Shown: positions 11,409-27,858 of the stretch, piece by piece
Layout: the number at the start of each line of letters is the position of its first letter
Position numbering within the stretch: the stretch's first letter is position 1
Source: Corynebacterium glutamicum ATCC 13032
Lineage (GTDB): Bacteria > Actinomycetota > Actinomycetes > Mycobacteriales > Mycobacteriaceae
Reading direction: 5' to 3'
Assembly (NCBI RefSeq): GCF_000011325.1
Contig: NC_003450.3
Coordinates: forward strand, 3,150,001-3,182,000
DNA: 32,000 nucleotides
Notes under the pieces: model-generated
What the model was told of the DNA's origin: nothing
What the model saw: the letters and a program-made list of their open reading frames with translations, nothing else
Database searches by the model: none
Program-made: the position numbers and the translations under genes

Positions 11409-11679
11409 CGGATCTCCAATACTACGGATAAAGACGTGGAAAATAGGTTCACTGTCATCCTATTAGCTCCCCGACCCTTCACCAAGGGGCACATATTTTC
11501 GATTATCCCCGCCACCAGTAGCGGTAAGGATAGTGGAACCGGTCAGCTGGTCACCGTCGCATGCTGGTACAAACATCAGGGGCAGGAGGCCGGTGATCGA
11601 ACGGTGCCGGTCCATGGTCTCGCCGCGGAAGACGGACCCTCGGCGGGCTCAAACACCCCAGGGGAAGTCCCTATCTTTC

Positions 11680-12015: not shown

Positions 12016-12535
12016 ATAAACAACCTTTCGGAGCCGGTCTGGGAAGCATCGAATGGTGAGGAGACGATGTTTTTGTTCATGCGCCTTCCCTGATGACCCG
12101 AGAAGTTAGCGCAGTACGTAAAAAAGTGGACTCTGACGTGTCAGTGGTAGGGATCCTCCGTGGGCGGGCCGATGCGCAGGATAGCGGTCAGCGCTTGGTT
12201 TCGGTCACTGACATCGAGATGGGCGACGATTATTCATGAGGAACGCAAGTTTATTGCAGCATCACGCGACGAGTCAACTACATCCGACCCATTGCGCAAG
12301 CTCTTCGATTGCGGTTGATCGTGATGGTCAAAACCAGCGGCCGGTCAGGGATCGCTCTTTGCCACACGTCAGGGACTTAAGCTCGTCAGTAATTGTTGGC
12401 GGCGGCGACGGTAGCGAACTCGATGGCGACGACATGGCCGGCCATGGTCAAAGAATCCGCGTTCGTGGCATAACCCGGTCGTAACGTCTCTCGGACTTCG
12501 GCATCTGGTTGGATTACTCCGATGGTCTTCCGCGC

Positions 12536-12853
12536 GGTGCTGTTGCAAAGTTTGGGCAGTAGGAAGAGCGACGTGAAATAATCACAGCCATGGGTACCTT
12601 CTCCGGTCGTCATTTCCCCCGTGACATCATTCTGTAGGCAGTGCGCAGGTCACTGCCGCTACGGGGTGAGCTGACCTAAGATCTGGAGGAAACGATGACT
12701 TCAGCGGGGCGTGCCGGTCGATCACACCACGATTCTCACCGCTGGGTCCAGACATACGCCCCTGAGCTGGACAAGCAAACACGGTGGTACCGGCAGGTAC
12801 CTGACTAGCAGGCCAGTTCCTGGCGGGTGGATAAGACCTACATCCGGGTACGG
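12536..12853 (+). mobile_element. truncated IS6-family element (left IR plus ~260 bp of a degenerate transposase 5' region)
   Basis: It starts with the IS6/IS26-type IR GGTGCTGTTGCAAAGTTTGGGCAG. ATG at 12590 gives MGTFSGRHFPRDIIL*AVR..., with TAG stops where Trp is expected. It is ~95% identical (by eye) to the RC of 27541-27858. Similarity stops at ~12850. Confidence 0.85.
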
Positions 12854-12855
12854 TG

Positions 12856-12984
12856 TCATCGGTAATCGGTGGTGACGTCGCTGACCCCGAGGAGTTCCAT
12901 GTCCTCCTGGGCTCTCACCGCGTCGGCTACACGTTTACCGATGACACCGTACCCGTTTACTGCAACCTTGATTTTATTCGGCAT
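12856..12984 (-). pseudogene. N-terminal 42 codons of a class II (archaeal-type) glyceraldehyde-3-phosphate dehydrogenase-like gene, truncated at the IS6 fragment
   Basis: SD GGAAGGA lies upstream, then ATG at 12984. The peptide is [42 protein letters not shown]. The [19 protein letters not shown] Rossmann start is characteristic of that family. The ORF ends where the IS6-derived sequence begins. Confidence 0.6.
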
Positions 12985-13071
12985 GCTGATTGTCCTTCCC
13001 GGAAATCCTGGTTTGGCCCGATGGTCGTATGGTCGTGTTTCTCATCTGGGGTGGTCGGGGAATGTCCTTGT

Positions 13072-13734
13072 TCAGAGCTCGTTGAGCATCTGCTCCATCT
13101 CGGCGATCTCGGCCTCCTGATCTTCAATGACCTGCTCAGCCAGAGCGATGGCCTGCGGGTTCTGGCCATCAGTGACCTCATCGCGGGCCATATCGACCGC
13201 GCCCTCATGGTGGGCGGTCATCTGCTCAAGGTAGAGCCGGGCAGCCTCGGTGCCCTGGGCGTCCTCGAGGGCTGTCATGTCCTCCTCGCTCATCATTCCA
13301 CTCATCCCGCCATGGTCCATCTCACCCATATCACCGGTGACCGGATCTTCTTCCCAGGTCTCGAGCATGGTATTCATCCGGTCGATCTCCGGGCCCTGGG
13401 CATCGATAACACCCTGGGTGAACTCGATGACCTCGGCCGGGATATCGTCCTTGGCCAGGAGGATTTCACTCATCTCCACGGCCTGTTGGTGATGCGGGAT
13501 CATCATCTGCGCGAACATGATGTCCGCATCATTGTGCTCGGCGGAGACCTCTCCGGCCGCCCCCGTCTCTGTCTCAGGATCCGTGGTGGCCCCGGTCGTT
13601 TCGGTGGTGTCGGGGGCGGACGTAGTGGCGATGGTCGTGGTGTCGGTGTTTTCTCCCTCAGTGTTATCTGCGCAGGCGGACAAAACCAGGGTGGAGGTCA
13701 AGGCGAGAGCGGCGATGGTGATAGTGCGCTTCAT
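13072..13734 (-). CDS. DUF305-family secreted lipoprotein (copper-associated four-helix-bundle family)
   Basis: Signal peptide plus lipobox LVLSAC. It has a Thr/Glu-rich linker and duplicated DUF305 motifs (MMIPHHQQAVEMS / QMTAHHEGAVDMA). A Met/His-rich stretch GDMGEMDHGGMSGMMSEEDM is also present. Confidence 0.85.
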   Translation of the reverse strand: MKRTITIAALALTSTLVLSACADNTEGENTDTTTIATTSAPDTTETTGATTDPETETGAAGEVSAEHNDADIMFAQMMIPHHQQAVEMSEILLAKDDIPAEVIEFTQGVIDAQGPEIDRMNTMLETWEEDPVTGDMGEMDHGGMSGMMSEEDMTALEDAQGTEAARLYLEQMTAHHEGAVDMARDEVTDGQNPQAIALAEQVIEDQEAEIAEMEQMLNEL

Positions 13735-13786
13735 GGGGGTTCCCTTTCGGAGGTTGTGTATGGGGGAGTCGATGAAGGATTGAAAG

Positions 13787-16006: not shown

Positions 16007-16056
16007 GAGGTTCCTTCCGCTCAACCCGGTCGGGGTCGAGATGATGGGTGAATCGA

Positions 16057-16389
16057 TCAGGACAAGACGGTGTAGCCGGTCTCCTCAATTGCCCGGTGGA
16101 CGGTTTCCAGGGGCACGGAACCCGTGACCGTGACGATGGAGACCCCACCGGCGATGAGGTCGACCTGGACGTCGTCGACCTGGGGCAGAGCGCTCACCGC
16201 CTCGGTGACGTTGTCGGCGCAGTGTCCGCAGGTCATGCCTGTGACCTGGTAGGTGGTGGGACCTTCAGGTGTTGCGTCGGTTGCCGCGGCCACGGCCGAG
16301 GCGGAGACGGTCGCGGACGGTGTAGAGGGCGCGCAGCATCCACAACCGTCGGAGGCCAGCGGCAGCAAGGGGGAAGTCGGGGTGGTCAT
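16057..16389 (-). CDS. heavy-metal-associated (HMA) domain protein with extra N-terminal Cys cluster
   Basis: SD AGGAGC precedes the ATG at 16389. The motifs are ...DGCGCCAPS... followed by YQVTGMTCGHCADNVTEAV (GMTCxxC). It lies immediately upstream of copB on the same strand. Confidence 0.85.
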   Translation of the reverse strand: MTTPTSPLLPLASDGCGCCAPSTPSATVSASAVAAATDATPEGPTTYQVTGMTCGHCADNVTEAVSALPQVDDVQVDLIAGGVSIVTVTGSVPLETVHRAIEETGYTVLS

Positions 16390-16436
16390 CGGATCGCTCC
16401 TGTGGGATCGGGGGATCAGGCGGGGTTTCCCCTCCC

Positions 16437-16464
16437 ATCGTATACCCCTATGGGGTATTGTCAA
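16437..16464 (-). promoter_or_regulatory. sigma-A-type promoter TTGACA-16 nt-TACGAT whose spacer is a CsoR-type palindrome ATACCCC-TAT-GGGGTAT
   Basis: On the minus strand, TTGACA is 16459-16464 and TACGAT is 16437-16442. The 17-bp perfect palindrome is 16442-16458. It sits ~50 nt upstream of the HMA-protein start and overlaps the last codons of copS. Confidence 0.6.
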
Positions 16465-17647
16465 GGGGTTGATACGGATCGCTGCCGAGGTCATCAGAAT
16501 TATTGTCCCCGGGAGTGGGGTCACTGAGCATCAGGGACACGTTTTCCTGGTGCAGGGGAAGACGGATGGTGAAGACCGATCCGGCACCGGGGCCAGGAGA
16601 GGTGGCGGTGAGAGTGCCGCCGTGGGCCTCGATCAATGCCTTGGAGATGGTCAGACCGATACCGGCCCCGCCGTTGTCCCGGCTGCGGGCGGCATCCCCC
16701 CGGTAGAAGCGTTCGAAGATGTGTCCGAGCTGGCCAGGTGGGATGCCCTCGCCGTCATCGGCGACGTGGATGAGCGCGGTGGACGCCCCCTGTCGGTGGA
16801 CGCTGATCCGGACCTGCCCGCCGGCCGGGGTGTACCGTAGCGCGTTCGACAGGAGATTGCTCATCACCTGGCCGAAGCGTTGCCGGTCCACGAGCACCCG
16901 GACGGTGTCCATAATGGTCTCGACCTGTAAATCGACGCCTTTGTCAGCATAAGCTTCCCCCGCGGCAGCAGCGGCGGTATGGAGCAGATCCCCGAGCCCT
17001 TCCTCCGCCAGGTCCAAATCGATCCGGTGTTCCTGGGCCCGGGAGACATCGTCGATGTCTTCCATCAACCGGGTCAGGCGGGTGAGTTGGTCAGCCATGA
17101 TCGTGTGGGTGGCATTATTCCAGTCCACGACCCCGTCCTGGAGACCATCGAGGTAGACCGTGAGCACCGATAAGGGGGTGCCCATTTCGTGGGCCAGATC
17201 AGAGAGCATCTGGCGGCGGACCTGTTCGGTGTGTTCCAGCCGGTCGGCCATGGTGTTGAAGGCATGCGCCAGGGTGGTGACCTCGGGGCCTGCTTCTCCG
17301 GCGGGCACGCGGATACGGTAGTTGCCGGCCGTCAGGCTGGTAGCGGCGCGGGTGAGATCCTGCAGGGGGGTGCGCAGGCGACGCGATAACCACAGGCTGG
17401 CCAGCAGGGCGCTGATCAAGGCGGTGGGCAGGGCGACGGCCAGGGTGATCAGGTTGGCGTCCCGGTAGGCCTGCTCGGCATGGAACAGCTCCAGCGAGGG
17501 GTCCTCCCGGCCGGTCATCAACATATGATCATGGAACAGGGTCGGGCCCACCATCGTGGCCACGGCCGCGGCCACCAGCAGGCTAATCACCACGACCAAC
17601 ACCTGGGCGGCCAGGAAGCGGAAGGTCAGGCCGGGTCTGTGATTCAT
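16448..17647 (-). CDS. copS: sensor histidine kinase of the copper two-component system
   Basis: It has two N-terminal TM segments, HAMP, the H-box SDLAHEMGTPLS, and HATPase motifs (NLLSNALRYTP, DDGEGIP, GGAGIGLTI). Its ATG overlaps the copR stop (ATGA). Confidence 0.93.
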   Translation of the reverse strand: MNHRPGLTFRFLAAQVLVVVISLLVAAAVATMVGPTLFHDHMLMTGREDPSLELFHAEQAYRDANLITLAVALPTALISALLASLWLSRRLRTPLQDLTRAATSLTAGNYRIRVPAGEAGPEVTTLAHAFNTMADRLEHTEQVRRQMLSDLAHEMGTPLSVLTVYLDGLQDGVVDWNNATHTIMADQLTRLTRLMEDIDDVSRAQEHRIDLDLAEEGLGDLLHTAAAAAGEAYADKGVDLQVETIMDTVRVLVDRQRFGQVMSNLLSNALRYTPAGGQVRISVHRQGASTALIHVADDGEGIPPGQLGHIFERFYRGDAARSRDNGGAGIGLTISKALIEAHGGTLTATSPGPGAGSVFTIRLPLHQENVSLMLSDPTPGDNNSDDLGSDPYQPLDNTP

Positions 17648-18366
17648 GGCTGCCCCACCCGGTAGCCCACGCCACGCACGGTGTCGATAAACCCCCGGCC
17701 CCGGGTGTCGGTGCCGAGCTTGCGACGCAAGTTGCCGATGTGGACATCGACGATGCGTTCATCGCCGACCCAGGTGGTGTCCCAGACCTCGGTGATCAGG
17801 TCGTGGCGGGTCAGCACCTGGCCGGGGCGCAGGGCCAGGGCAACCAGCAGCTCGAACTCCGTGCGGGTGAGCTCCACGGTCGTCTCCCCCACCCACACCT
17901 GATGGGCGACGGGGTCAAGGATGAGGTCACCAACGATCAAGGGGGTGGTCACCTGCGGTGGGGTGGTGCTGGTGCGCGGGCGGCGCAGCACCGCATGCAC
18001 CCGGGTCACCAGTTCCCGGATGCTAAAAGGTTTGGTGATGTAGTCATCCGCCCCCAGGGTCAAACCGCTGATCTTGTCGTCCTCGCTGCCACGCGCGGTG
18101 AGCATGAGGATGTAGCAGTCCGAGAAGGTGCGGATCCGTCGGCACACCTCCAGGCCGTCGAGTTCGGGCAGCCCCAGATCCAGCACCACAACATCGGGGG
18201 AAAAGCGACGGGCCTCGTCCACGGCCTGGGTGCCGGTGTGCGCCTGGCGGGTGTCGAAGCCGGCCCGGATGAGGTAGGAGGCCACCATCTGAGCCAGGGG
18301 TTGTTCATCATCGACGACCAGCACCCGCCCCGGGGGCGTGGCGGTGGTCGGTGTGCGGTCAGCCAT
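17644..18366 (-). CDS. copR: OmpR-family response regulator of the copper two-component system
   Basis: Receiver domain (VLVVDDEQPL...VVVLDLGLPELDG) plus an OmpR-type winged helix (...LTRTEFELLVAL...IDTVRGVGYRV). I prefer the ATG at 18366 (MADRTPTT...). Confidence 0.93.
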   Translation of the reverse strand: MADRTPTTATPPGRVLVVDDEQPLAQMVASYLIRAGFDTRQAHTGTQAVDEARRFSPDVVVLDLGLPELDGLEVCRRIRTFSDCYILMLTARGSEDDKISGLTLGADDYITKPFSIRELVTRVHAVLRRPRTSTTPPQVTTPLIVGDLILDPVAHQVWVGETTVELTRTEFELLVALALRPGQVLTRHDLITEVWDTTWVGDERIVDVHIGNLRRKLGTDTRGRGFIDTVRGVGYRVGQP

Positions 18367-18424
18367 AGACCCCAGTATCGCTTCGGCCGGGGGGAATACC
18401 ACCCTCGTTCAGTGCCCGGCGGGG

Positions 18425-18444
18425 AAATCTTCATCAAATCTTCA
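18425..18444 (-). promoter_or_regulatory. CopR operator, direct repeat TGAAGATTT-nn-TGAAGATTT
   Basis: The plus strand reads AAATCTTCA-tc-AAATCTTCA. The RC equals the CopR binding motif I recall being published for C. glutamicum. It lies in the copR / cueP-like divergent intergenic region, 59-78 nt upstream of copR. Confidence 0.8.
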
Positions 18445-18768
18445 AACATCACCCTTCGACCGCCGTCACCCCTGTGCCCCACCCCGGGCCGGCGGCATCG
18501 CCTCCCCTGGTCGGTTCAGCAGGCGTCACCAGGGATTTCACTGCCTGCACCGCATACCCGGGGCGGGTAGAAGGACATCGTCCACGGCTGTGGGGTGGTG
18601 TCCCGGTGGTGACCCAGCCCACCGGAGTCACCCCCTTTTCGCCCTGTTATAAGGCTGTGAGCAGGGTTTTTGATTTCTGGGCCGTCAGGCACCCGTGCTA
18701 GAAAAGGTATGGCATCGACCTTGAGGCGGTGTCTTCTCACGGTCTTACCACGATCCAAGGAGATTGAC

Positions 18769-19344
18769 GTGAAACGAGCAGCGATCGCAGCCGCCGCCCT
18801 TACCCTCGCCCTCACGGGGTGTTCGGCCGCCGACCCGGAACCCACCGCCGACGGGACGGTGTCCCAGGATACATTCCTGACTACCCATGGCCTGGCCGCC
18901 ATGGACGCGGTGGAGATCATTGATCACCTCGACCGGCAGAAGGTCACTGAGCGTCCCACGGATCTGATCGCCTCAGTGCGTGCCGATGAACTGCTGCTCT
19001 CGAGCGATGACCAGGAAGTCGTGGTCGATCTTCCCGACAATCAGACGTATGTCTCGATCGCACCCTACCTCACCTCCACCCACGACTGCTTCTACCACAG
19101 CCTCACGACCTGCCTGGGGGAACTCGACAATGAGGATATCCAGGTCACGATCACCGATGAAGCGACCGGCGAGGTCCTGATCGATGAGCAAACCACCACC
19201 TTCGACAACGGGTTTGTCGGCTTCTGGCTTCCCGATGATGCCACCGGCACCATCGAGATCACCCATCAGGGGCGCACCGGTGTCACCGAGTTCTCCACCA
19301 CCGAGGACGGGGCCACCTGTGTCACGGACCTGCGCCTGACCTGA
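18769..19344 (+). CDS. CueP-like secreted copper-binding lipoprotein
   Basis: SD AAGGAG lies 6 nt before the GTG at 18769. The lipobox is LALTGC. Three Cys are spaced as I recall for CueP (THDCFYHSLTTCLGEL ... GATCVTDL). The family call is from memory. Confidence 0.75.
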   Translation: MKRAAIAAAALTLALTGCSAADPEPTADGTVSQDTFLTTHGLAAMDAVEIIDHLDRQKVTERPTDLIASVRADELLLSSDDQEVVVDLPDNQTYVSIAPYLTSTHDCFYHSLTTCLGELDNEDIQVTITDEATGEVLIDEQTTTFDNGFVGFWLPDDATGTIEITHQGRTGVTEFSTTEDGATCVTDLRLT

Positions 19345-19414
19345 TGCCTCAGCAGCGGGTTTCCCCTGATCCTTCCCCTGTGTCACTCAGACTTGCACCA
19401 AGGACGGTTTAACC

Positions 19415-20896
19415 ATGACAAGTAGTTTTTCCCGGCGACAGTTTCTGCTCGGCGGGCTCGTACTCGCCGGCACCGGGGCCGTGGCCGCCTGCACCAGCGA
19501 CCCTGGACCCGCTGCCTCGGCACCAGGTCCCTCCCTTCGCCCCACTCCCACCCCCACTGCGCTCGGTGAGCCGACGGTGCGCCGGACACTGACCGCCCGG
19601 CCCCTCTCCCTGGATATCGGCGGCATCGAAGCCAAGACGTGGGGATACGTCTCTGACACCGGGGATGCGGCCATTGAGGCCACCGCCGGCGACGTCCTCC
19701 AGGTCGATATCACCAATGAACTGCCTGAGAGCACCTCCATCCACTGGCATGGCATCGCACTCCACAACGCAGCCGACGGTGTGCCCGGCATGACCCAGGA
19801 CCCCATTGAACCTGGCGAGTCTTTCTCCTATGTTTTTGAAGTCCCCCACGGTGGCACCTACTTCTACCATTCCCACACCGGCCTGCAGCTTGATCGCGGC
19901 CTCCACGCCCCACTGATCATCCGTGACCCGCAAGACGCTGAGGACCAGGACGTCGAGTGGACCATCGTGCTCGACGACTGGGTCGATGGCATTCAGGGCA
20001 CTCCCGACGATGAGCTCGACAAGCTCACCGGAATGGGTTCGGGCGACCATAACGGGAGGATGGGAATGGGAGGTCACGGCCAGATGATGCACGGCACCCC
20101 GGACCGGGTACTGGGCGGGGATGTCGGCGATGTGATGTATCCGCACTACCTCATCAACGGACGTATCCCCCGTGCTCACCGGACCTTCGAGGCTCGCCCG
20201 GGCGACAAGGCCCGCCTGCGGTTTATCAACTCCGGCGGTGACACCATCTTCAAGGTGGCCCTCGGTGGTCACCGCATGACTGTCACCCACACCGACGGCT
20301 TCCCTGTCCAGCCCTGGGAGACCGAATCGATCTACCTGTCGATGGGCGAGCGTGTCGACGTCGAGGTCATCCTCGGCGACGGCATCTTCCCGCTCACGGC
20401 TTTGGCGGTGGGTAAGGACGACCGCGCCTTCGCCGTCATCCGCACCGCCGGCGGCCAGGCCCCCCGCCCCGATGTCGACTTCCCCGAGTTGTCGTCCACC
20501 GGACTGCTTCTGTCCTCCCTGAAGCCAGCAGACCGTGCACTCCTGCCCGAGGGCACACCAGACCGAGAAGTCAGCATCGACCTGGGCGGGCAGATGATGC
20601 CGTATGAATGGAGCATTCTCACCGACGGCCAATCCTCCTCCGCGACCGTGCAGGAGGGCCAGCGCCTGCGGATGGTCATGCGCAACAGGACCATGATGCC
20701 CCATCCCATGCACATCCACGGCCACACGTGGGCGCTGCCCGGCAGCGGCGGGCTACGCAAGGACACCGTCCTTCTCCGCCACGGTGAAACCATGATCGCC
20801 GACCTGATCGCTGACAACCCCGGTGAGTGGGCATTTCACTGCCATAACGCCTATCACATGGAAACCGGGATGGTCAGCTCGCTTCGCTACGAGTAA
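19415..20896 (+). CDS. copO: multicopper oxidase, Tat-exported lipoprotein
   Basis: Twin-arginine signal SRRQFLLGG followed by AVAAC. The four copper-ligand motifs are HWHG, HSH, HPMHIHGH and HCHNAYHMETGM. Confidence 0.95.
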   Translation: MTSSFSRRQFLLGGLVLAGTGAVAACTSDPGPAASAPGPSLRPTPTPTALGEPTVRRTLTARPLSLDIGGIEAKTWGYVSDTGDAAIEATAGDVLQVDITNELPESTSIHWHGIALHNAADGVPGMTQDPIEPGESFSYVFEVPHGGTYFYHSHTGLQLDRGLHAPLIIRDPQDAEDQDVEWTIVLDDWVDGIQGTPDDELDKLTGMGSGDHNGRMGMGGHGQMMHGTPDRVLGGDVGDVMYPHYLINGRIPRAHRTFEARPGDKARLRFINSGGDTIFKVALGGHRMTVTHTDGFPVQPWETESIYLSMGERVDVEVILGDGIFPLTALAVGKDDRAFAVIRTAGGQAPRPDVDFPELSSTGLLLSSLKPADRALLPEGTPDREVSIDLGGQMMPYEWSILTDGQSSSATVQEGQRLRMVMRNRTMMPHPMHIHGHTWALPGSGGLRKDTVLLRHGETMIADLIADNPGEWAFHCHNAYHMETGMVSSLRYE

Positions 20897-21046
20897 CCCC
20901 CACAGCAGGGTTGAGTGCCGAGGTGGGCAGAGTCGCTGCAGACCACCCACCGGGCAGCACGATGACCTTCCTCGGTGTTGTGGTCTTCCGGGACAACCAG
21001 AACACCGTCTTCTTCCTCACCGCCCCGGAATAAGGAGATCTAATCC

Positions 21047-21620
21047 ATGCCGAGCACACCCCGCAGAGCCGCCATCGCGGTTGCCGCGGTGCTCACCGCC
21101 GTGACCCTGGTGGCCTGTTCCTCAGGCGACGGCGCCCGAAACGCCGTCGCCGTCGGGGGGCACCTTCCAGTTCCACTCACCAGGAGGCCAAACCGAGATT
21201 ATCTACGCAGAGGAGGAACGTGCCCCGCTGCCGGACTTCTCCGGCCCGTCGCTGATGGAGGAGGGTGAGGAGATCAGCCTGTCTGATTTTGAAGGCGAGG
21301 TCGTCGTCCTCAACGCTTGGGGCCAGTGGTGTGCACCGTGTCGGGCGGAAGTCGATGACCTGCAGCTTGTCCAGGAGACTCTCGACCCCCTCGGTGGCAC
21401 GGTGCTGGGCATCAACGTCCGTGACTACAACCAGACCATCGCCCAGGACTTCAAACTCGACAACGCGGTGACCTATCCCTCGATCTACGACCCGCCGTTT
21501 CGTATCGCTGCGGCCCTGGGTGGGGTGCCGACCTCGGTCATCCCGACCACCATTGTCCTGGACCGAAGCCACCGCCCGGCCGCGGTGTTCCTGAGGGAGG
21601 TCACCGCGTTGTCTGGTTAG
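21047..21620 (+). pseudogene. tlpA: TlpA/ResA-like thiol:disulfide oxidoreductase, split by a frameshift in a G6 run
   Basis: The signal/lipobox part (MPSTPRRAAIAVAAVLTAVTLVACSSGD..., ORF 21047-21268) and the thioredoxin-fold part (GTFQFHSPGGQTEIIYAEEERAPLPDFSGPSLMEEGEEISL...WGQWCAPCRAE..., ending at 21620) are in different frames. They join cleanly if the run GGGGGG at 21155-21160 had five G. The thioredoxin part alone equals ORF 21255-21620. Confidence 0.8.
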
Positions 21621-22537
21621 TCCTGGGAGGTGATGAGCTCGAGGACGATCTTGCCGCGGGCGTGGCCCTGCTCAACGTGGGCCAGGGCCTTACCGGCCTG
21701 TTCCAGCGGGTAGGTCGTATCGACCTTCGGGTCGACCAGCCCGTACTGGACCACCCCGGTGATCTGTCCGACCATTTCCGGGGTGCGGCGCAGCACCTGT
21801 CCACCGAGTTCTCCCACGGTGGCAGCATCAGCCGCCGAGATCACGTGCGCCGGATTCTTCGCTAAGGGAGCAACCACCCGCAACGCCTCCCCGCCGACTA
21901 GGTCGAAGACTACGTCCACACCGTCAGGGAGCAGCGCACGCACCTGCTCCGCGACGGCGTCGCCGGTGGCGACGAAGATAGCACCGGTGGATTCGATGAG
22001 CTCGCGCTTGTCCTCGTGGTCAACGCCGACGACCTGGAACTTGTGGACCCGTCCGATCTGCGCGGCCATCAGCCCGACCCCACCACCGGCCCCATTGATC
22101 AGCAACGACTGGCCTGGTTCAAGCTCGACCTGGTGAGTGCCGGCGTAGGCGCTCGCCCCAGCGACCGGGATCGCGGCGGCGTCGGTGAACGAGATCTCCT
22201 CCGGCTTTAGCACGGTACTCTCTGCCACCAGCAGGGTGTCCTCGGCATATCCGCCGACGCCGGGGGCCACCAGGCCGAGCACCGGATCGCCGACCGCGAA
22301 GCCCTCCACACCGTCTCCAACGGCGGTGACGATCCCGGAGGCCTCCTCGCCCAGGGGTGCCGGAAGCTCTCGCGGGGTTCCGGCAACCCCGGAACGGACC
22401 TTCCAATCAAGCGGGTTGACCCCGGCCGCGTGGACCTTGACCCCGAGTTCTCCCGGGCCTGGCTGGGGGGTGTTGCGGGTGATCAGTTCCTGGTTTTCCG
22501 GGCCGCCGTACTCGTTGGACACGTATACCTTCGACAT
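21617..22537 (-). CDS. zinc-type alcohol dehydrogenase / NADPH:quinone oxidoreductase family protein
   Basis: SD GGAGAGGAAG precedes the ATG at 22537 (MSKVYVSNEYGGPENQEL...). The MDR-family layout carries the nucleotide-binding motif LINGAGGGVGLMAAQIG. Its stop overlaps the tlpA stop (TTAG, convergent). Confidence 0.88.
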   Translation of the reverse strand: MSKVYVSNEYGGPENQELITRNTPQPGPGELGVKVHAAGVNPLDWKVRSGVAGTPRELPAPLGEEASGIVTAVGDGVEGFAVGDPVLGLVAPGVGGYAEDTLLVAESTVLKPEEISFTDAAAIPVAGASAYAGTHQVELEPGQSLLINGAGGGVGLMAAQIGRVHKFQVVGVDHEDKRELIESTGAIFVATGDAVAEQVRALLPDGVDVVFDLVGGEALRVVAPLAKNPAHVISAADAATVGELGGQVLRRTPEMVGQITGVVQYGLVDPKVDTTYPLEQAGKALAHVEQGHARGKIVLELITSQD

Positions 22538-22907
22538 CGTGTGCTTCCTCTCCTCGTGAATTTCTTTCCTGTGGTCACGGCCGTTTGCGGCCTTGCCTGT
22601 CACGGTAGGAAGATGATCACCGCGAGACCATGACGTGGATCAAAGAGTGAAAGAAGTGATCACGAAGGACCCCACCGACATTGGGGGATCTATCGCGCAG
22701 GCCCCTTCGTGCCGCTAAGGTCGGTGTCGCTTGCCACAGCGTGCCCAGGGCCTCTCGATGCCCTAGGTGAGGCCTGCCCCTGTTCCCAGCAGGAGCAGGC
22801 ATTTTTCTCCGTCGTCACCCTTCGGGGACGGCAGGACCCTGACATGCATATCCCACACCGCCTCAACGGTTGCGCACCATGAATCCCGAAAAACCGGCTA
22901 GTACCGG

Positions 22908-23075
22908 TTAAACCTGCGGCAGTGGGGAGGCCCTGAGGCGAAGGTCGGTGATGCAGGTGGCTCCGTCCGTACCGGTGGTGAAGTAGGAGTAGCCGATGAA
23001 CCCGTTGTCGAAGGTGGTTGCCTGCTCCGAGACGAGCACCGCACCCGTGCCGTCCTCAATGATCTCCAACTCCTG
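22908..23075 (-). pseudogene. C-terminal fragment of a second cueP-like gene
   Basis: ...LEIIEDGTGAVLVSEQATTFDNGFIGYSYFTTGTDGATCITDLRL... aligns with VTITDEATGEVLIDEQTTTFDNGFVGFW...TTEDGATCVTDLRL of the 18769 gene, apart from a ~17-aa internal gap. No N-terminal two-thirds is present. Confidence 0.7.
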
Positions 23076-23076
23076 G

Positions 23077-23469
23077 GCGATTGAGACCACCTGCGCGCTC
23101 TACCTGCCCGTCGAGGCCCTGGCCGAGGTCGTGGACGCCTACCCGCAACTGGCGTTGGCGATCATGCGGATGCAGCAGGACCAATTGGTCCGGTCCCGGG
23201 AACGCGAGACCGCACAGACCACCTCGACTGTCGAGCAGCGCGTGGCCGCCGCCCTCCAACACCTGGACGCCAAGCTCGGGCAAATCCGACAAGACGGATC
23301 CAGCCTGCTGCAGGTCCGCCTGCGCCGCGACGACGTGGCCGGCACCACCGTCGAGTCCGCCTCCCGGGCAATGGCGCGGATGAAGAAAACCGGTGTCATC
23401 GACTCCGGCCGCGAATGGATCGCCATTACCAACCACCAGGCCCTGGCCGACCTGGTCGCCGGCCTCTAA
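23077..23469 (+). pseudogene. FNR-type Crp/Fnr-family regulator lacking the N-terminal sensory (cNMP/beta-barrel) domain
   Basis: Only the end of the barrel, the dimerisation helix and the HTH are present: AIETTCALYLPVEALAEVVDAYPQLALAIMRMQQDQL...EQRVAAALQHL...DDVAGTTVESASRAMARMKKTGVI...IAITNHQALADLVAG. The recognition helix has the FNR-type E-x-x-S-R motif. The first 27 codons of listed ORF 22996-23469 are antisense to the cueP-like fragment. Confidence 0.7.
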
Positions 23470-23529
23470 ACGCCCACATCCCTCTCTCTTTCCCAGGACA
23501 ATTTCCCGGTAGGAGAGATTTGTCGTTGT

Positions 23530-23571
23530 TTGATCCAGGTCAAGGAATTAACCCGGAAAGGACCGTATCTT
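23530..23571 (+). promoter_or_regulatory. P1: FNR-type box TTGATCCAGGTCAA + 22 nt + TATCTT (class-II geometry) upstream of the HMA chaperone
   Basis: The box is 23530-23543 (centre 23536.5) and the -10-like hexamer is 23566-23571. The centre lies 29.5 bp from the first base of the hexamer, as for a -41.5 site. Confidence 0.55.
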
Positions 23572-23624
23572 TAAAGGTGCAAGCACAGGAACATGACGAT
23601 AAAAGATGAAAGGACCTGGTTACG

Positions 23625-23861
23625 ATGACCGCCCCCGCCACGCTGAAGAACACCACCTTGCGCTCTGATGAGTTCACCTGTCCGAGCTGTGTCGCCAAGA
23701 TCGAAAACAAGCTGAATGGTTTGGACGGCGTGGAGAATGCGGAGGTGAAGTTCTCCTCCGGACGCATCCTGATCACCCACGACCCACAGAAGGTCTCCGT
23801 ACGTGACCTGGTCACCGCGGTAGCCGAGGTCGGTTACACCGCCAAGCCGTCGGCGATCTGA
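23625..23861 (+). CDS. HMA-domain metallochaperone (CPSC metal site)
   Basis: 78 aa with a ferredoxin-like HMA pattern: LRSDEFTCPSCVAKIENKLNGLDGVENAEVKFSSGRILITHDP...AVAEVGYTA. Confidence 0.85.
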   Translation: MTAPATLKNTTLRSDEFTCPSCVAKIENKLNGLDGVENAEVKFSSGRILITHDPQKVSVRDLVTAVAEVGYTAKPSAI

Positions 23862-23880
23862 CGCACTCCCGACCCCACAA

Positions 23881-23910
23881 GCCCGCCCGCACCAGAAAGT
23901 GCCGGCGGGC
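23881..23910 (+). terminator. GC-rich hairpin downstream of the chaperone gene (no U-tract)
   Basis: GCCCGCCCGCAC-cagaaa-GTGCCGGCGGGC is a 12-bp stem with one mismatch. Confidence 0.45.
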
Positions 23911-23975
23911 CATCTGTGCCCCCGGGCTACGAGCACCACAGTCTTTTTGCGATCCATATCTCACTTTGCGGGTAC

Positions 23976-24017
23976 TTGATGCGGATCAAGGTACTTTCTC
24001 CGGATTGTTCATAACTT
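23976..24017 (+). promoter_or_regulatory. P2: consensus FNR box TTGATGCGGATCAA + 22 nt + TAACTT upstream of the repeat protein
   Basis: The box is 23976-23989 (centre 23982.5) and the hexamer is 24012-24017. The geometry is the same as P1 and P3. The ~90 bp from the box to the ATG is a diverged duplicate of the P3 region. Confidence 0.55.
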
Positions 24018-24066
24018 AATGAGTATCACAGAAAACACCTGATCTTCATCATGAAAGGACACCACC

Positions 24067-24384
24067 ATGGCCGAAGTAACCTTTGCCAGTCTCCACGAGA
24101 AAATGAACTTCCTGCTCAAGGACCACGGGGTCGAGAACTTCGACGAGTCGGATCTGGACCTCGAATCCGTCTCCTCACTGCACGCCAAGGCGAACGCGTT
24201 ATGCGCCGCCCACGGCGGTGACCCCTCCCGCATGGCGAACGATACCCTCGCCCAGCTGCACCCGAAGCTGGACTTCCTGATGAAGGGGCACGGCGTGGAC
24301 ACCGACACTGCCCGCCTGGACTTGAGCACACTGGAGGCTGTGGATGCCAAGGTCAACGCCGTTGTCAACGCCCACGATCATTAG
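24067..24384 (+). CDS. small acidic protein made of two ~46-aa tandem repeats with conserved His positions; function unknown
   Basis: 105 aa, with SD AAAGGA upstream. Repeat 1 is TFASLHEKMNFLLKDHGVENFDESDLDLESVSSLHAKANALCAAHG. Repeat 2 is TLAQLHPKLDFLMKGHGVDTDTARLDLSTLEAVDAKVNAVVNAHD. About 20 of 46 positions are identical. Confidence 0.7.
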   Translation: MAEVTFASLHEKMNFLLKDHGVENFDESDLDLESVSSLHAKANALCAAHGGDPSRMANDTLAQLHPKLDFLMKGHGVDTDTARLDLSTLEAVDAKVNAVVNAHDH

Positions 24385-24636
24385 CGACTGGACCATCTTT
24401 CCGAAGTGGGAGCCGCGCTGTCCTCATGTCCACACCGACCCGTGAACGACAGGGACCGAATCTTCTCGCAAGAACTCGAGCCCTGAATACAGGCGACATC
24501 CAGGGTGCCATACGCAACGGCTACTCCCGCCTATCACAGTGTGGCGGCGTTGTACCGCGTGAGCCGTCCTGCGGGCCAGGACGACACTATCCACCTAGGA
24601 CATCTCAAGGAGACCCGTGACGCCTACCAGTGACGC

Positions 24637-24774
24637 GTAGATGACGACCTCGCCCTGTTCCCCTCCCTTGCGGCGCCCGACCCACACGGCCGCCACCCGA
24701 TCCGGGAATGGCTGAGCACTCACACCGGCCCTCTCATGGACCCCGGCTGTACCGCCAAACCCTCGGCCTACTAA
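24637..24774 (+). pseudogene. possible degenerate remnant of a second HMA-chaperone gene
   Basis: The frame ending in TAA at 24772-24774 reads VDDDLALFPSLAAPDPHGRHPIREWLSTHTGPLMDPGCTAKPSAY*. Its tail GCTAKPSAY* parallels GYTAKPSAI* of the 23625 gene (~21 of 30 nt identical), with weak similarity further upstream. Confidence 0.3.
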
Positions 24775-24830
24775 ACACCCCCTATCCGAGTACCCGGGAA
24801 AGGAGCATGATCGACGCCACGTCATCTCCA

Positions 24831-24876
24831 CGCCAGGAACCCACCAGCACCGTGCGGTGCTGGTGGGTTCCTGGCG
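24831..24876. repeat. 46-bp essentially perfect palindrome (22-bp arms)
   Basis: CGCCAGGAACCCACCAGCACCG-tg-CGGTGCTGGTGGGTTCCTGGCG. This is why the peptide QEPTST.RCWWVPGV appears in ORFs on both strands. No U-tract follows. Confidence 0.95.
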
Positions 24877-24937
24877 TTGACAGGCCACGTGGCATGCTCT
24901 TCTGCTCCACCTCGTCAGGTCGGAGGTGTGTGGGTGA

Positions 24938-24979
24938 TTGATCCAGGTCAAGGAAGTTTCTCCGGAATTGTCCTAACTT
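24938..24979 (+). promoter_or_regulatory. P3: FNR-type box TTGATCCAGGTCAA + 22 nt + TAACTT upstream of the P1B ATPase
   Basis: The box is 24938-24951 (centre 24944.5) and the hexamer is 24974-24979. The geometry is identical to P1 and P2. Confidence 0.55.
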
Positions 24980-25027
24980 AATGAGTGTCACAAGAAAAAG
25001 ACCCTCAAAAAGTAAAGGACACCCATC

Positions 25028-26905
25028 ATGAAGACCTGGAAAACCTGGGGCATCGTCGCCGTCTCAGGCCTGTTGATTATCCTGTCCTGGCTCACCCCCG
25101 CTGGGTGGCTGTCAGACGGATTCATGATCGCCGCCGCGGTGGTCGCCGGCTGGCAGATCGCCCTCTCCGCCGTCCAGGCCCTGCGCATTAGGATGATCTC
25201 GATTGACCTGCTGGTCATCGTCGCCGCCATCGGCGCGCTGTTCATCAACAACTACTGGGAATCCGCCGCCGTCACCTTCCTCTTCGCCCTCGGCAAGGCA
25301 CTGGAGAAGGCCACGATGAACCGCACCCGCAAGGCACTGTCTGACCTGGTGGACGCTGCCCCCGAGACCGCCACCGTGCTGCGCGACGGTGAGCCCGAAA
25401 CCGTTGAGATCTGGGAACTGGCCCCCGGTGACGTCGTGCTCGTGAAAAACGGCGAGCAGATCCCCGTCGATGGACGCGTGCTCTCCGGACACGGTGGGGT
25501 CGATGAGGCCACCATCACCGGAGAATCCGTCCCGGCCGAGAAGGCCGCGGACTCCGAGGTCTTCGCCGGCACCTGGCTGCGCTCCGGTGTGCTGCGCATT
25601 GAGGCGATCGGCATCGGCTCGGATTCCACCCTGGCCAAGATCATCCACCGTGTCGAAGACGCCCAGGATGACAAGGCAAAAACCCAGACGTTCCTGGAGA
25701 AATTCTCGAAGTACTACACCCCCGGCGTCATGATCGCCGCCCTGGCCGTCGGCCTGATCACCCTGAACGTTGAACTGGCCCTGACCCTGCTGGTCATCGC
25801 CTGCCCGGGTGCCCTGGTCATCTCGATCCCGGTCTCGATCGTCGCCGGTATCGGCCGCTCCGCCAAGGACGGCGTCCTGATCAAGGGCGGGGAATACCTG
25901 GAGACCTCCGCGAAGGTCGACACCGTAGTCGTCGACAAGACCGGCACCCTGACCAACGGCCGCCCCGAGCTGACCAACGTCGACGTCCTTGACCCCGCCT
26001 ACTCGGACGATGAGGTGCTCACCCTGGCCGCCCGCGCGGAAACCGCCTCCGAGCACCCCCTGGCCGAGGCCATCATCCGCGGCGCGGAGAACAGGGGCTT
26101 GACCGTGGCGATGGTAGAAAAGGCCGAACCGGTCGCCGGCCGCGGCATCCGCGCTGACGTGGACGGTGCCACCGTGGCCGTGGGCTCAGCCGACCTGCTC
26201 GATCACACCCCGGATAACACCCGCATTCTCGAGCTCAACGAACAGGGCAGGACCGCCATGTACGTCGGCATCAACGGCAAGGCCGTGGGCATCGTCGCTG
26301 TGGCCGACACCATCCGAGATGATGCCCCGGCCGCGATCAGGTCCCTGCACAATAAGGGAATCCGCGTGGTCATGGCCACCGGTGATGCCGAACGCGTCGC
26401 CCGCAACGTCGCCGCCGAGCTCGGTGTCGATGAGGTGAGGGCAGAACTGATGCCTGAGGACAAGCTCGAGATCGTCAAGGAGCTGCAGGCGCAGGGCCGG
26501 GTCGTGGCCATGGTTGGCGACGGTGTCAATGACACCCCGGCACTGGCCACCGCGGACATCGGTGTGGCGATGGGTGCGGCCGGTTCGCCTGCCGCCATCG
26601 AGACCGCCGATATCGCCCTGATGGCCGACAAGCTGCCGCGGCTGCCCTACGCCCTGGGTCTGGCCCAGCGCACGGTGCGCACCATGCGGGTCAACATCGG
26701 CATCGCCCTGCTCACTGTCACGATCCTGCTGGCCGGTGTCCTGCTCGGTGGAGTGACCATGTCGATTGGCATGCTCGTCCACGAGGCCTCCGTCCTGCTG
26801 GTCATCGCGATTGCGATGCTCCTGCTGCGCCCCACCCTGAAGGAAGACAAGGACAAGGCAGACGTCAGTACTGCTGACGCCGCGAAGGAGACGCTGAGCG
26901 CCTAA
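25028..26905 (+). CDS. P1B-type heavy-metal ATPase without N-terminal metal-binding domain, atypical CPG transmembrane motif
   Basis: 625 aa with four TM segments before the actuator domain. Motifs are TGES, DKTGTLT and GDGVNDTPAL. The TM motif is LLVIACPGALVISIP (TGC CCG GGT at 25802-25810) instead of CPC/CPH/SPC. The last TM has HEAS. Confidence 0.9.
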   Translation: MKTWKTWGIVAVSGLLIILSWLTPAGWLSDGFMIAAAVVAGWQIALSAVQALRIRMISIDLLVIVAAIGALFINNYWESAAVTFLFALGKALEKATMNRTRKALSDLVDAAPETATVLRDGEPETVEIWELAPGDVVLVKNGEQIPVDGRVLSGHGGVDEATITGESVPAEKAADSEVFAGTWLRSGVLRIEAIGIGSDSTLAKIIHRVEDAQDDKAKTQTFLEKFSKYYTPGVMIAALAVGLITLNVELALTLLVIACPGALVISIPVSIVAGIGRSAKDGVLIKGGEYLETSAKVDTVVVDKTGTLTNGRPELTNVDVLDPAYSDDEVLTLAARAETASEHPLAEAIIRGAENRGLTVAMVEKAEPVAGRGIRADVDGATVAVGSADLLDHTPDNTRILELNEQGRTAMYVGINGKAVGIVAVADTIRDDAPAAIRSLHNKGIRVVMATGDAERVARNVAAELGVDEVRAELMPEDKLEIVKELQAQGRVVAMVGDGVNDTPALATADIGVAMGAAGSPAAIETADIALMADKLPRLPYALGLAQRTVRTMRVNIGIALLTVTILLAGVLLGGVTMSIGMLVHEASVLLVIAIAMLLLRPTLKEDKDKADVSTADAAKETLSA

Positions 26906-26924
26906 CGACACAATCGCCACAGCC

Positions 26925-26962
26925 AGCCCCGCCGGTTTCCTCCAGGTCTTCCCGGTGGGGCT
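26925..26962 (+). terminator. hairpin downstream of the ATPase gene
   Basis: AGCCCCGCCGG-16 nt-CCGGTGGGGCT is an 11-bp stem with one mismatch, followed by TTCCCC. Confidence 0.4.
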
Positions 26963-27008
26963 TTCCCCTGTGCACCAGATCCCCGATCTCATGTAGCTGC
27001 ACTGTGAC

Positions 27009-27858
27009 GGTGCTGTTGCAAAGTTGGGCGGAGAGCAGCGAAGACTCAGTTTCTCATTCCCTGATCGCCGCTGCGTGTGGGCGTTGTTAGGCCGTCTCGA
27101 AGACCCGGTTGACGATCACCGCGTCCGGGTTCGGTTGCCCGTGAGGGCAAACATCATGCCTTGCCCTTTCCGCAATGAGTGCATCGCCTCCATCCCTTTC
27201 AACGTCCGATATGCAGATGTCTAAGTTCTTAAACGCGCCTTTCGGCCCGAGGATCCGTTTCAGCCGACCATGGTCGCCTTCCAGGATGTTGTTGAGGTAT
27301 TTCACCTACCGGTGTTCCACTGTTGGCGGGCAGATTCCCTCTGACTTCAACTCGGTGATTGCCCTGGCTAGGGAGGGTGCTTTATCGGTGTTGATCACTC
27401 TGGGATACCCGGCTGACGCATTGGATCTGAGGGCCTTGGCCAGGAAACGCTTCGCTGCGGCCACGTTCCGCTTCGGAGAGAGGTAAAAGTCCAGGGTCTG
27501 GCCACCGGCGGTGATCGCCAGATCAGAGGTAGCACCACCTGCCGCCGACCCGGATATAGGTCTCATCCACCCGCCAGGAACTGGCCTGCCAGTCAGGCAC
27601 CTGCCGGTACCACCGTGTTTGCTTGTCCAGCTCAGGGGCGTATTTCTGGACCCAGCGGTAGATCATGGTGTGATCGACCGGCACGCCCCGCTGAAGTCAT
27701 CATTTCCTCCAGATCTTAGGTCAGCTCACCCCGTAGCGGCAGTGACCTGCGCACTGCCCACAGAATGATCTCACGGGGAAATGACGACCGGAGAAGATAC
27801 CCATGGCTGTGATTATTTCACGTCGCTCTTCCTACTGCCCCAACTTTGCAACAACACC
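27009..27858 (-). mobile_element. full-length but defective IS6-family element (850 bp)
   Basis: The IRs are GGTGCTGTTGCAAAGTTGGGCGG (27009 onward) and, as RC of the other end, GGTGTTGTTGCAAAGTTGGGGCAG (27858 backward). No 8-bp target duplication is seen (flanks ACTGTGAC / CAAAATCC). Confidence 0.9.
27087..27804 (-). pseudogene. IS6-family transposase, multiple frameshifts and in-frame stops
   Basis: Recognisable pieces lie in different frames: MGIFSGRHFP..., ...GVPVDHTMIYRWVQKYAPELDKQTRWYRQVPDWQASSWRVDETYIRVGGRWCYL, ...AITAGGQTLDFYLSPKRNVAAAKRFLAKAL...VEHR*VKYLNNILEGDHGRLKR, SAYRTLKGMEAMHSLRKGQG and QPNPDAVIVNRVFETA. There is a TAG stop at 27306-27308. Confidence 0.85.

Follow-up and report, generated by a model that had tools for sequence, protein, structure and literature searches.

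A metal-handling locus of Corynebacterium glutamicum ATCC 13032 was analyzed within a stretch of 32,000 nucleotides (contig NC_003450.3, positions 3,150,001 to 3,182,000 of the forward strand); this whole stretch is called the window below, and features are given in its own coordinates. On the plus strand the locus carries the remnant of a Crp/Fnr regulator gene, cg3291 (23072-23469), followed by the genes of an HMA metallochaperone-like protein, cg3292 (23625-23861), a 105-aa tandem-repeat protein, cg3293 (24067-24384), and a 625-aa P1B-type ATPase, cg3295 (25028-26905). The gene of an MDR-family NAD(P)-dependent oxidoreductase, cg3290 (21617-22537), lies on the minus strand at the other side of the regulator remnant. 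The assignments are based on Pfam domains, which are only HTH_Crp_2 in cg3291 (also aligned to its full-length homologues), HMA in cg3292 (E = 1e-12, with a CPSC motif), E1-E2_ATPase and Hydrolase in cg3295, and ADH_N, ADH_zinc_N and ADH_zinc_N_2 in cg3290; cg3293 has conserved His residues and no Pfam match. cg3292 has been annotated as a copper chaperone (PMC3890552). An earlier reading of the letters alone, called here the sequence-only reading, had described an HMA chaperone, a tandem-repeat His protein and a P1B ATPase under the control of FNR-type boxes; these three gene assignments hold (the two halves of cg3293 are 47% identical to each other), while the plasmid origin had been missed.

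Each of the three intact plus-strand genes is preceded by a promoter of one and the same build. In promoter P1 (23530-23579, plus strand) the box TTGATCCAGGTCAA occupies 23530-23543 and is followed by GGAA; 22 nt separate the box from the -10 hexamer TATCTT (23566-23571), and the published transcription start site (TSS) is at 23579. In promoter P2 (23976-24025, plus strand) the box is the perfect palindrome TTGATGCGGATCAA (23976-23989); TAACTT (24012-24017) comes as the -10 hexamer after the 22-nt spacer, and the TSS is predicted near 24025. Promoter P3 (24938-24987, plus strand) has again TTGATCCAGGTCAA, at 24938-24951, with GGAA and the 22-nt spacer; its -10 hexamer is TAACTT (24974-24979), and transcription is predicted to start near 24987. 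P2 and P3 are close paralogues of each other, and the distance from the box to the TAnnTT hexamer is the same in all three. The box was searched in the consensus form TTGATnnnnRTCAA. Exact matches to TTGATNNNNRTCAA were found in the window only at 23530, 23976 and 24938, all on the plus strand, where 0.10 are expected by chance from shuffled sequences, and none of the shuffles reached four strand hits. A 46-nt extended pattern matched P1, P2 and P3 only (0 expected). When one mismatch was allowed, a fourth site with the same geometry was obtained on the minus strand upstream of cg3290; in this promoter (22643-22594, minus strand) TTGATCCACGTCAT is the box (22643-22630), 22 nt lie between it and the -10 hexamer TACCGT (22607-22602), and a TSS has been published at 22594. 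A position-weight matrix made from related promoters gave these four sites only in the window, and the cg3290 promoter scored 30.0 against a shuffle maximum of -12.3. The three boxes of identical geometry had been recognized by the sequence-only reading, together with the AAAGGA Shine-Dalgarno sequences before the start codons at 23625, 24067 and 25028, and all of these were found as described; the fourth promoter had escaped it. Ordinary sigma-70 promoters were rejected, as a scan of 22400-27100 for paired -35 and -10 consensus hexamers gave none, and a riboswitch or leader RNA was rejected on an Rfam scan of 22400-25200, which gave chance matches far below the gathering scores.

Published start sites were then placed on the window by subtracting 3,123,306 from the genome coordinates, a conversion that was checked on the starts of cg3292, cg3290 and an antisense RNA. 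The TSS of cg3292 at genome position 3146885, with a 5′ untranslated region (5′-UTR) of 46 nt, corresponds to 23579, and the TSS of cg3290 at genome position 3145900, with a 57-nt 5′-UTR, corresponds to 22594 with the ATG at 22537 (PMC3890552 supplement). A third TSS, at genome position 1234014, belongs to cg1328, a gene of the paralogous module described below, for which the authors named TAGACT, 7 nt away, as the -10 and listed no -35 (PMC3890552 supplement). At all three published TSSs the box is centred at -42.5 and covers -49 to -36, and at cg3292 and cg3290 the -10 hexamer spans -13 to -8. A class II promoter is one with an activator site near -41.5 and a weak or absent -35 element; here the site lies at -42.5 and there is no -35 element. 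The prediction of a start near 23578 for cg3292 was off by one base from the published one, and the class II geometry predicted along with it stands, with the centre corrected from -41.5 to -42.5. The 5′-end library came from unstressed aerobic cultures (PMC3890552). On the minus strand the same study lists an antisense transcript of 553 nt with a detected TSS and the -10 TACTCA, which runs from 24012 to 23460 (genome 3147318-3146766; PMC3890552 Supplementary Table S7) and whose published sequence matches the window. It begins inside the -10 hexamer of P2, crosses box 2, the whole of cg3292 and box 1, and reaches into the 3′ end of cg3291; its own -10 is the opposite strand of the conserved AATGAGT(A/G)TCAC downstream of the sense -10.

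The same promoter design recurs with the same genes in other bacteria. Loci with relatives of the regulator were collected with one genome scanned per species, which gave 31 loci in Corynebacterium, Dietzia, Rothia and Bowdeniella, and about 24 of the 31 have the order regulator-HMA-ATPase. A box, 22 nt and a TAnnnT hexamer stand before the HMA gene, about 30-40 nt past the regulator stop codon, and a second box precedes the ATPase gene wherever an intergenic gap is present; in the Dietzia loci and Bowdeniella, with the HMA and ATPase genes about 50 nt apart, there is the first box only. This geometry before both genes persists where the identity of the regulator drops to 45-70%. Conservation over 35 non-redundant promoters extends to the box, GGAA, the -10 hexamer with a C two bases ahead of it, and the +1 bases. 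The intervening 18 nt vary freely, and the distance from box to -10 is exactly 22 nt in all of these promoters. In C. phoceense (locus L017) a 78%-identical orthologue of cg3290 stands behind a perfect box. Where the modules decay, boxes and genes decay together: locus L018 has a degenerate box and a damaged HMA gene, in L033 the ATPase is internally deleted and the Arg of the recognition helix is changed to Gln, and the HMA gene or the ATPase gene is damaged in L018 and L028. This conservation and joint decay argue for function and against merely duplicated DNA, and the boxes and the adjacent regulator, on whose presence in homologous modules the sequence-only reading had staked its case, are kept in these loci.

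An intact copy is found on pCmarinum1, a plasmid of C. marinum, where the region is 94% identical to the module of the window. Its order is a boxed oxidoreductase gene, cueP, a boxed promoter, a stop-interrupted HMA paralogue, a full-length Crp/Fnr gene and then the three boxed genes; the leader promoter reads TTGATCCAGGTTAA, 22 nt and TATTTT, and an additional box of the same geometry precedes the gene of a Pfam ZIP metal transporter. From this material the three boxes of the window and the box of cg3290 are considered to be probable operator sites of an FNR-like protein of the Crp/Fnr superfamily. The bases around +1 form a further conserved region, with the consensus.A.aGGTG.CA over the 35 promoters. 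In the window the +1-flanking bases lie at 23572-23585, 24018-24031 and 24980-24993, and at P2 and P3 they contain the short palindrome GTGTCAC or GTATCAC. The conserved region could reflect a preference in the initiation region, serve as a second operator or be the antisense promoter.

Intact regulators of these loci have about 246-250 aa (many database entries have 242-250 aa). The full-length homologues carry the Pfam domains cNMP_binding and HTH_Crp_2 and have the beta-roll, dimerisation helix and C-terminal helix-turn-helix of the Crp/Fnr superfamily. The AlphaFold model (predicted local distance difference test, pLDDT, 92) has a TM-score of 0.91 and about 22% identity to Mycobacterium tuberculosis (Mtb) CRP and GlxR, the closest solved structures, and a profile search matched FNR at about 1e-20. 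The recognition helix reads T-V-E-S-x-S-R, with E, S and R invariant in the homologue alignments; the E-x-x-S-R helix together with the conserved TTGATnnnn(G/A)TCAA boxes indicates a putative FNR-type DNA recognition, as the sequence-only reading had seen from the helix of the remnant. The features of a CRP/GlxR-type cyclic AMP (cAMP) receptor are not present. In the profile alignment the position of the GlxR Arg that contacts the cAMP phosphate is held by a variable small residue, and the next Ser aligns with a near-invariant Asp; cAMP is an unlikely ligand because of the replacement of this Arg.

A different candidate for the sensory site was found at the N-terminus. All 34 loci examined encode the motif N-P-V-R-x-x-C-A-x-P-H-x-C in frame upstream. 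The regulator alignment has Cys16 and Cys119 as invariant positions, and the invariant Cys of the last beta-roll strand is Cys122 in Cg1327, the regulator of the paralogous module, in which the N-terminal candidate ligands are Cys13, His17 and Cys19. Examination of the N-terminus of intact homologues, which the sequence-only reading had proposed, thus gave a conserved Cys-x3-His-x-Cys and an invariant beta-roll Cys. Two N-terminal Cys and one His (C-A-x-P-H-x-C) with one beta-roll Cys are not the ligand set of FNR proper; a cluster held by three Cys and one His is possible in these regulators and would differ from that of FNR. Such ligand sets have precedents, as the [2Fe-2S] cluster of IscR is held by three Cys and one His and Cu(I) in CsoR is bound by two Cys and one His. 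We infer that the Cys3-His set would be the sensory site of the regulator. Automatic annotation starts many of the regulator genes about 21-27 codons late (products of 223-225 aa), which clips off the Cys-x3-His-x-Cys; the regulator loci as a whole were considered, and L001 7294-7359 and L038 5001-5081 are examples of late starts. The mRNA of cg1327 is leaderless with its TSS at the upstream ATG (PMC3890552), and since the TSS sits there the long form is taken as the real one. A first view from the 225-aa calls, that there is no N-terminal Cys motif, was rejected as an annotation artefact on the basis of the 246-250-aa forms, the in-frame conservation in 34 of 34 loci and the leaderless TSS. 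In a search of 1.8 billion representative proteins the wider clade was found to retain a single N-terminal Cys, often within H-x-C, together with the beta-roll Cys and the E--SR helix. Outside the module group the full Cys-x3-His-x-Cys is rare, and one more distant relative with the full Cys-His-Cys motif was obtained, P0169, on a 1.4-kb contig.

In the window the regulator gene has been damaged by two lesions. The cg3291 open reading frame (ORF) is without about 90 residues of the nucleotide-binding-type domain relative to the 225-aa homologue calls, and alignment with pCmarinum1 shows that about 1.3 kb has been lost between a point within cueP and a point within the regulator gene, with the junction at about 23072-23073. 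This deletion took the regulator promoter, the leader HMA pseudogene and the first ~110 codons. On its other side it left a remnant of cueP, the gene of a periplasmic copper-binding protein (22908-23073, minus strand; Pfam CueP E = 1.4e-6), which has an internal deletion and has lost its 5′ end, and in which further small deletions are seen against the intact cueP of pCmarinum1. The remnant of cg3291 begins just before the conserved WAIETTC segment and retains the Cys of the beta-roll as well as the dimerisation helix and a helix-turn-helix with the recognition helix TTVESASR. The second lesion is a 9-nt in-frame deletion at about 23338-23344 between short direct repeats, by which VAGMAGTT became VAGTT and three residues (AGM or MAG) were removed from the first helix of the helix-turn-helix. 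The sequence-only reading had described a decapitated Crp/Fnr regulator that has lost its sensory domain, which agrees with the single HTH_Crp_2 match and the missing N-terminal part; this second lesion it had not noticed. By its sequence cg3291 is a pseudogene twice over, and the regulator encoded in cis is taken to be dead; given the three residues lost from the helix-turn-helix, the 157-aa cg3291 product would not be expected to act in a dominant-negative way on Cg1327. The ratio of nonsynonymous to synonymous differences per site (pN/pS) of the remnant against pCmarinum1 is 0.14, no higher than in the intact genes, a value that is uninformative, since only 14 substitutions underlie it and the majority of these probably predate the deletion.

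C. glutamicum also has an intact copy of the module, cg1327-cg1328-cg1329, which was analyzed as locus L038 from strain MB001. The 250-aa putative Crp-family regulator CAF19878.1/BAB98567.1 corresponds to cg1327 in genomic position and in the sequence at its TSS. Cg1327 has 59% identity to the regulator of pCmarinum1, with which it shares the recognition residues. After cg1327 come TTGATCTAGGTCAA, 22 nt, TAGACT, the HMA gene cg1328 (product 86% identical to that of the window) and a terminator-like hairpin, and then TTGACGCAGGTCAA, 22 nt, TAACGT and the ATPase gene (product 78% identical to that of the window, with the same CPG motif). The cg1327 gene is transcribed from an ordinary promoter, and its expression is seen under standard conditions (PMC3890552). 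In one RNA-seq experiment cg1327 and cg1328 were co-induced (PMC7764795), and the transcript level of cg1327 changes as aerobic conditions give way to anaerobic ones, while its deletion had no growth phenotype (PMC6027265). The latter work states that no FNR homologue is annotated in the C. glutamicum proteome (PMC6027265), and a network reconstruction called cg1327 an orthologue of E. coli FNR with an uncharacterised regulon, hmp being a predicted target (PMC8303971). No functional study of cg3291-cg3295 or cg1327-cg1329 was found in open-access PubMed Central and bioRxiv, where the genes appear as entries of transcriptome tables only. For the present state of the module in the window, trans control by Cg1327 appears the likeliest; it is the simplest account of the TSSs of cg3292 and cg3290, because an intact and expressed Cg1327 shares the recognition residues. 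According to the sequence-only reading the module may be silent, constitutive or served in trans, and of these the last is best supported.

The pump of the module has an unusual membrane motif for a P1B ATPase. cg3295 has no N-terminal metal-binding domain, and its membrane motifs are CPG (within 25795-25830) and HEASVL. Its closest solved structure is the P1B-4 pump sCoaT (7qbz, E = 7e-109), and in the alignment CPG falls at the SPC position and HEAS(V) at the HEGS(T) position. CPG is invariant in the module ATPases examined, including the cg1329 type; HEASVL is found in most of them, with one HEGSVL and two unmatched by the pattern. The P1B-4 class is defined by SPC, HEGxT and the absence of an N-terminal HMA domain; cg3295 shares this absence and has its best match in 7qbz, but carries CPG and HEASV, and judged from its motifs it would be P1B-4-like and was not filed as a canonical P1B-4 member. 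A 2026 review lists the motifs of the fourth transmembrane helix (TM4) of seven P1B subtypes as CPC, CPH, SPC, PCP, SCA and CSC, without CPG (PMC13460109), and a search of open-access PubMed Central and bioRxiv found no literature on a CPG motif in P1B ATPases. The assignment to P1B ATPases in the sequence-only reading was right, while the non-canonical CPG motif had been overlooked. As for the substrate, the neighbours (cueP and the cop island) point to copper, and the other boxed genes (ZIP) together with the P1B-4 likeness point to divalent metals.

The mechanism that may be drawn from these data is as follows. The promoter would consist of TTGATnnnnGTCAA-GGAA, 18 more nt, TAnnnT, 7 nt and +1, without a -35 hexamer; a regulator dimer centred at -42.5 would contact RNA polymerase as a class II activator and substitute for the -35 contact. 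The regulon would comprise the CxxC HMA protein and the P1B-4-like CPG ATPase, to which some lineages would add the His-containing repeat protein, the MDR oxidoreductase and the ZIP transporter, and in some lineages the regulator itself would belong to it through the HMA-paralogue leader gene. A metal ion or an Fe-S cluster would fill the Cys3-His site and give the DNA-binding, activating form, as the cluster does in FNR, and in C. glutamicum Cg1327 would drive the island promoters in trans. Such an FNR-like class II activator circuit is, as a whole, a likely explanation of the data. That the regulator activates rather than represses is likewise likely, being favoured because of the position of the site, the lack of a -35 element and the invariant spacing despite the divergence of the spacer. 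The boxes with their geometry and conservation, the start sites, the lesions of the pseudogene, the paralogue and the Cys/His motif are observed directly; activation, cross-regulation by Cg1327 and the nature of the signal (metal, Fe-S cluster or redox) are what we infer beyond this. It is a tentative idea that Cg1327-type proteins may be direct metal sensors on an FNR scaffold, in which the Cys-x3-His-x-Cys and the beta-roll Cys replace the Fe-S cluster.

Several observations weigh against the activator circuit, and they have to be considered together with the other explanations of the locus. The binding of the regulator to the boxes and activation upon binding are both predicted. The N-terminal arm has a pLDDT of only about 70 in the model of the long form, on which the presumed proximity of the four candidate ligands depends, and the Cys/His motif cannot be matched position by position to the ligands Cys20, Cys23, Cys29 and Cys122 of E. 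coli FNR. The published 5′-end data contain no sense-strand TSS for cg3291, cg3293 and cg3295 (PMC3890552), and at P2 the sole mapped start is the antisense one. The copper-excess stimulon at 21 µM Cu stops, in its main tables, at cg3289 and includes neither module (PMC3140484), so 21 µM copper is not an obvious inducer of either. The promoters of cg3292 and cg3290 are active in unstressed aerobic cells in which no regulator is encoded in cis, a finding that fits trans control, a repressor or basal activity. Furthermore, the regulator has been lost repeatedly and independently beside intact HMA and ATPase genes, by the deletion in the window, by truncation at residue 140 in a C. glutamicum plasmid (L002 5003-5257, residues 140-224 only, beside a recombinase gene) and by an ISL3-family element that splits the gene in C. 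casei (L036 3286-5399), which is the pattern expected when a repressor is lost. If the regulator were a repressor, it would sit on the box (-49 to -36) and block RNA polymerase until the signal releases it, and its loss would give a constitutive pump that is selected under metal stress. We regard this as unlikely: a steric block needs no fixed spacing, whereas the 22 nt are exact in 35 of 35 promoters in spite of the divergence of the spacer, and there is no -35 element to occlude. The firing of promoters without a regulator in cis is also a weakened argument for repression because Cg1327 is present and expressed in the same cells, so that the TSSs do not show independence from a regulator. 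To our knowledge, all well-studied Crp/Fnr proteins whose site is centred near -41.5 act as activators.

The missing starts of cg3293 and cg3295 would also suit a relic, in which the regulator is destroyed, the module is decaying, the boxes are leftovers without function and the transcription is basal noise. The surroundings are indeed degraded (the remnants of cueP and of the regulator, the insertion sequence (IS)-like ORFs at 27087-27684), and other copies are decaying, as told above for L033, L018 and L028. Against this, full-length ORFs are present for the HMA, His-repeat, ATPase and oxidoreductase proteins, with pN/pS of 0.13-0.45 versus pCmarinum1, two of the four promoters have a mapped TSS exactly where it is expected, and a paralogous regulator with the same recognition residues exists in the same genome lineage; a relic is accordingly improbable, more so than a repressor. 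The boxes might finally belong to GlxR or another unrelated regulator, with the adjacent Crp/Fnr gene being coincidental. GlxR binds hundreds of sites in C. glutamicum and, together with Mtb CRP, is the nearest to the regulator family among solved structures. Yet its consensus TGTGA-N6-TCACA differs from the boxes TTGAT-N4-GTCAA, its recognition helix is R-E-x-x-x-K in the alignment where the regulator family has V-E-S-x-S-R, and the boxes accompany the regulator gene across genera and decay with the module (L018, L033), so that this explanation has hardly any weight.

When compared with known systems, the activator circuit resembles E. coli FNR in the half-site sequence, the E-x-x-S-R helix and the Crp/Fnr fold of the regulator family, in a site one helical-turn register upstream of the -10 with no -35 element, and in candidate sensor residues that are split between the N-terminal arm and a Cys of the last beta-roll strand (residue 122 in FNR as well as in Cg1327). 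The differences are that the regulator motif is Cys-x3-His-x-Cys and that of FNR is Cys-x3-Cys-x2-Cys-x5-Cys; that the motif is set off from the domain by an extra predicted helix and the beta-roll Cys comes two residues earlier; that the site centre is at -42.5, with a second half-site which is mostly GTCAA and is followed by the conserved GGAA; and that the regulon is a small metal-handling module in place of the anaerobic respiration programme of FNR. Mtb CRP (Rv3676) and GlxR are related by structure and come from the same bacterial order, but they bind cAMP and read TGTGA-N6-TCACA, whereas the regulator family is without the phosphate-binding Arg and has an FNR-type recognition helix and an added N-terminal Cys/His arm. 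The pump shares with P1B-4 ATPases (sCoaT, CtpD, CtpJ, PfeT) the lack of an N-terminal metal-binding domain and HE(G/A)S in the last membrane helix, and differs by CPG in TM4 instead of SPC.

Metal-efflux pumps and chaperones are, by textbook knowledge, controlled by MerR, ArsR/SmtB, CsoR or CopY regulators or by two-component systems. The module resembles the canonical circuits (CsoR, CopY, CueR/MerR or ArsR/SmtB with CopZ-CopA) in that a CxxC HMA protein and a P1B pump stand beside a one-component regulator; the regulator is here of the Crp/Fnr type, and control appears to be activation from -42.5, not derepression or MerR-type distortion. A precedent is the FNR/FixK control of rhizobial fixGHIS/ccoGHIS, which includes the P1B ATPase FixI/CcoI: there too a Crp/Fnr activator acts at an FNR-type box with a P1B ATPase among its targets. 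FixI, however, supplies copper to cbb3 oxidase, belongs to a respiratory operon and has CPC and N-terminal HMA domains, whereas the pump here is P1B-4-like with CPG and no metal-binding domain, the HMA protein is separate, and the modules lie in mobile resistance islands beside cueP, ZIP and cop genes. Another likeness is to the FNR-like Flp proteins of Lactobacillus casei and Lactococcus lactis, as these too are FNR-family proteins without the full Cys cluster. Upon oxidation Flp forms an intramolecular disulfide that enables promoter binding, and the pair of Flp proteins in Lactococcus is linked, by the title of a reference, to zinc uptake and oxidative stress (PMC7162690). Flp comes from another phylum, has another N-terminal sequence with no known conserved His, and no HMA-ATPase synteny is reported for it. 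The sequence-only reading had called an FNR-type metal circuit unusual; this is true for metal-resistance modules and too strong as an absolute statement, given fixGHIS and the zinc link of Flp (PMC7162690). A 2024 review of bacterial metallosensor families makes no mention of Crp/Fnr in the first 300,000 of its 605,994 characters (PMC11672702). In open-access PubMed Central and bioRxiv no description was found of resistance islands in which a dedicated FNR-type regulator is paired with a P1B pump and an HMA protein, and the same sources gave none of the Cys-x3-His-x-Cys regulator motif or the CPG pump class.

The value of the locus is that a conserved and mobile module of Corynebacteriales would use an FNR-type protein at -42.5 whose putative sensory motif is neither the cluster site of FNR nor the nucleotide site of CRP. 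If the signal is a metal, the metallosensors would gain a new family and an industrial organism a new promoter part that is metal-inducible; if an Fe-S cluster or a thiol switch carries the signal, C. glutamicum would after all possess an FNR-like redox sensor. Should direct metal sensing prove true, the Crp/Fnr fold would join the metalloregulator families and the substrate of an unclassified P1B subtype would be defined in a tractable organism. The copy in the window is degraded and points to an intact, testable system in a model organism. Late gene starts, by about 25 codons in most of these regulator genes, also hide the putative sensory motif in current automatic annotation.

The wider setting of the module was also surveyed. 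Its genes follow directly downstream of the CopRS-controlled copper island cg3281-cg3289 (PMC3140484). The G+C content is 58-69% over about 8000-27000 and about 52-55% in the flanks, and the stretch ends at the IS-like ORFs; it reads as horizontally acquired DNA. Over this length it contains VIT and methyltransferase genes, copB-copRS-copO and the boxed module, and is a composite metal island whose pieces are contiguous on pCmarinum1 and here interrupted and inverted. The ATPase gene has a synonymous divergence (pS) of 0.28 versus pCmarinum1 (25027-26902 against L001 9591-11469), which is 5-15 times that of the HMA, His-repeat and oxidoreductase genes (0.02-0.06); this uneven divergence suggests that the module is a recombinant mosaic.

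Among the module proteins, the C-x-S-C motif of cg3292 is conserved in the HMA proteins. For cg3293 a homologue search found a narrow family of 25 protein clusters, of which all organism-named members come from Corynebacterium and in which His10, His39 and His49 are invariant; there was no Pfam family, and no names that hint at function were among the homologues. Among the related loci the gene, with its promoter, is restricted to the pCmarinum1-type lineage of the module. Some close relatives are without the His-repeat gene (L009 1448-1461, L008 9231), and in L009 a P2-type box TTGATGCGGATCAA stands directly before the ATPase gene, as if recombination between the paralogous P2 and P3 had either taken out or brought in the cg3293 cassette. 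The ~550 bp between cg3293 and box 3 (24385-24937) have no recognisable gene and end in a hairpin, a perfect, terminator-like 17-bp inverted repeat at 24836-24871 (plus strand) downstream of cg3293, with which a TransTermHP prediction at genome 3148146-3148173 coincides (PMC3890552 supplement). A gene of a cytochrome b561-molybdopterin-oxidoreductase fusion, accompanied by a 91-aa ORF, is found directly upstream of the regulator in Dietzia (L019 6140-7913, L024 5082-6855) and nearby on pCmarinum1 (L001 1697-3503), and the window has an 84%-identical stretch at 6766-8055, in a rearranged position. The b561-molybdopterin fusion may be functionally linked to the module.

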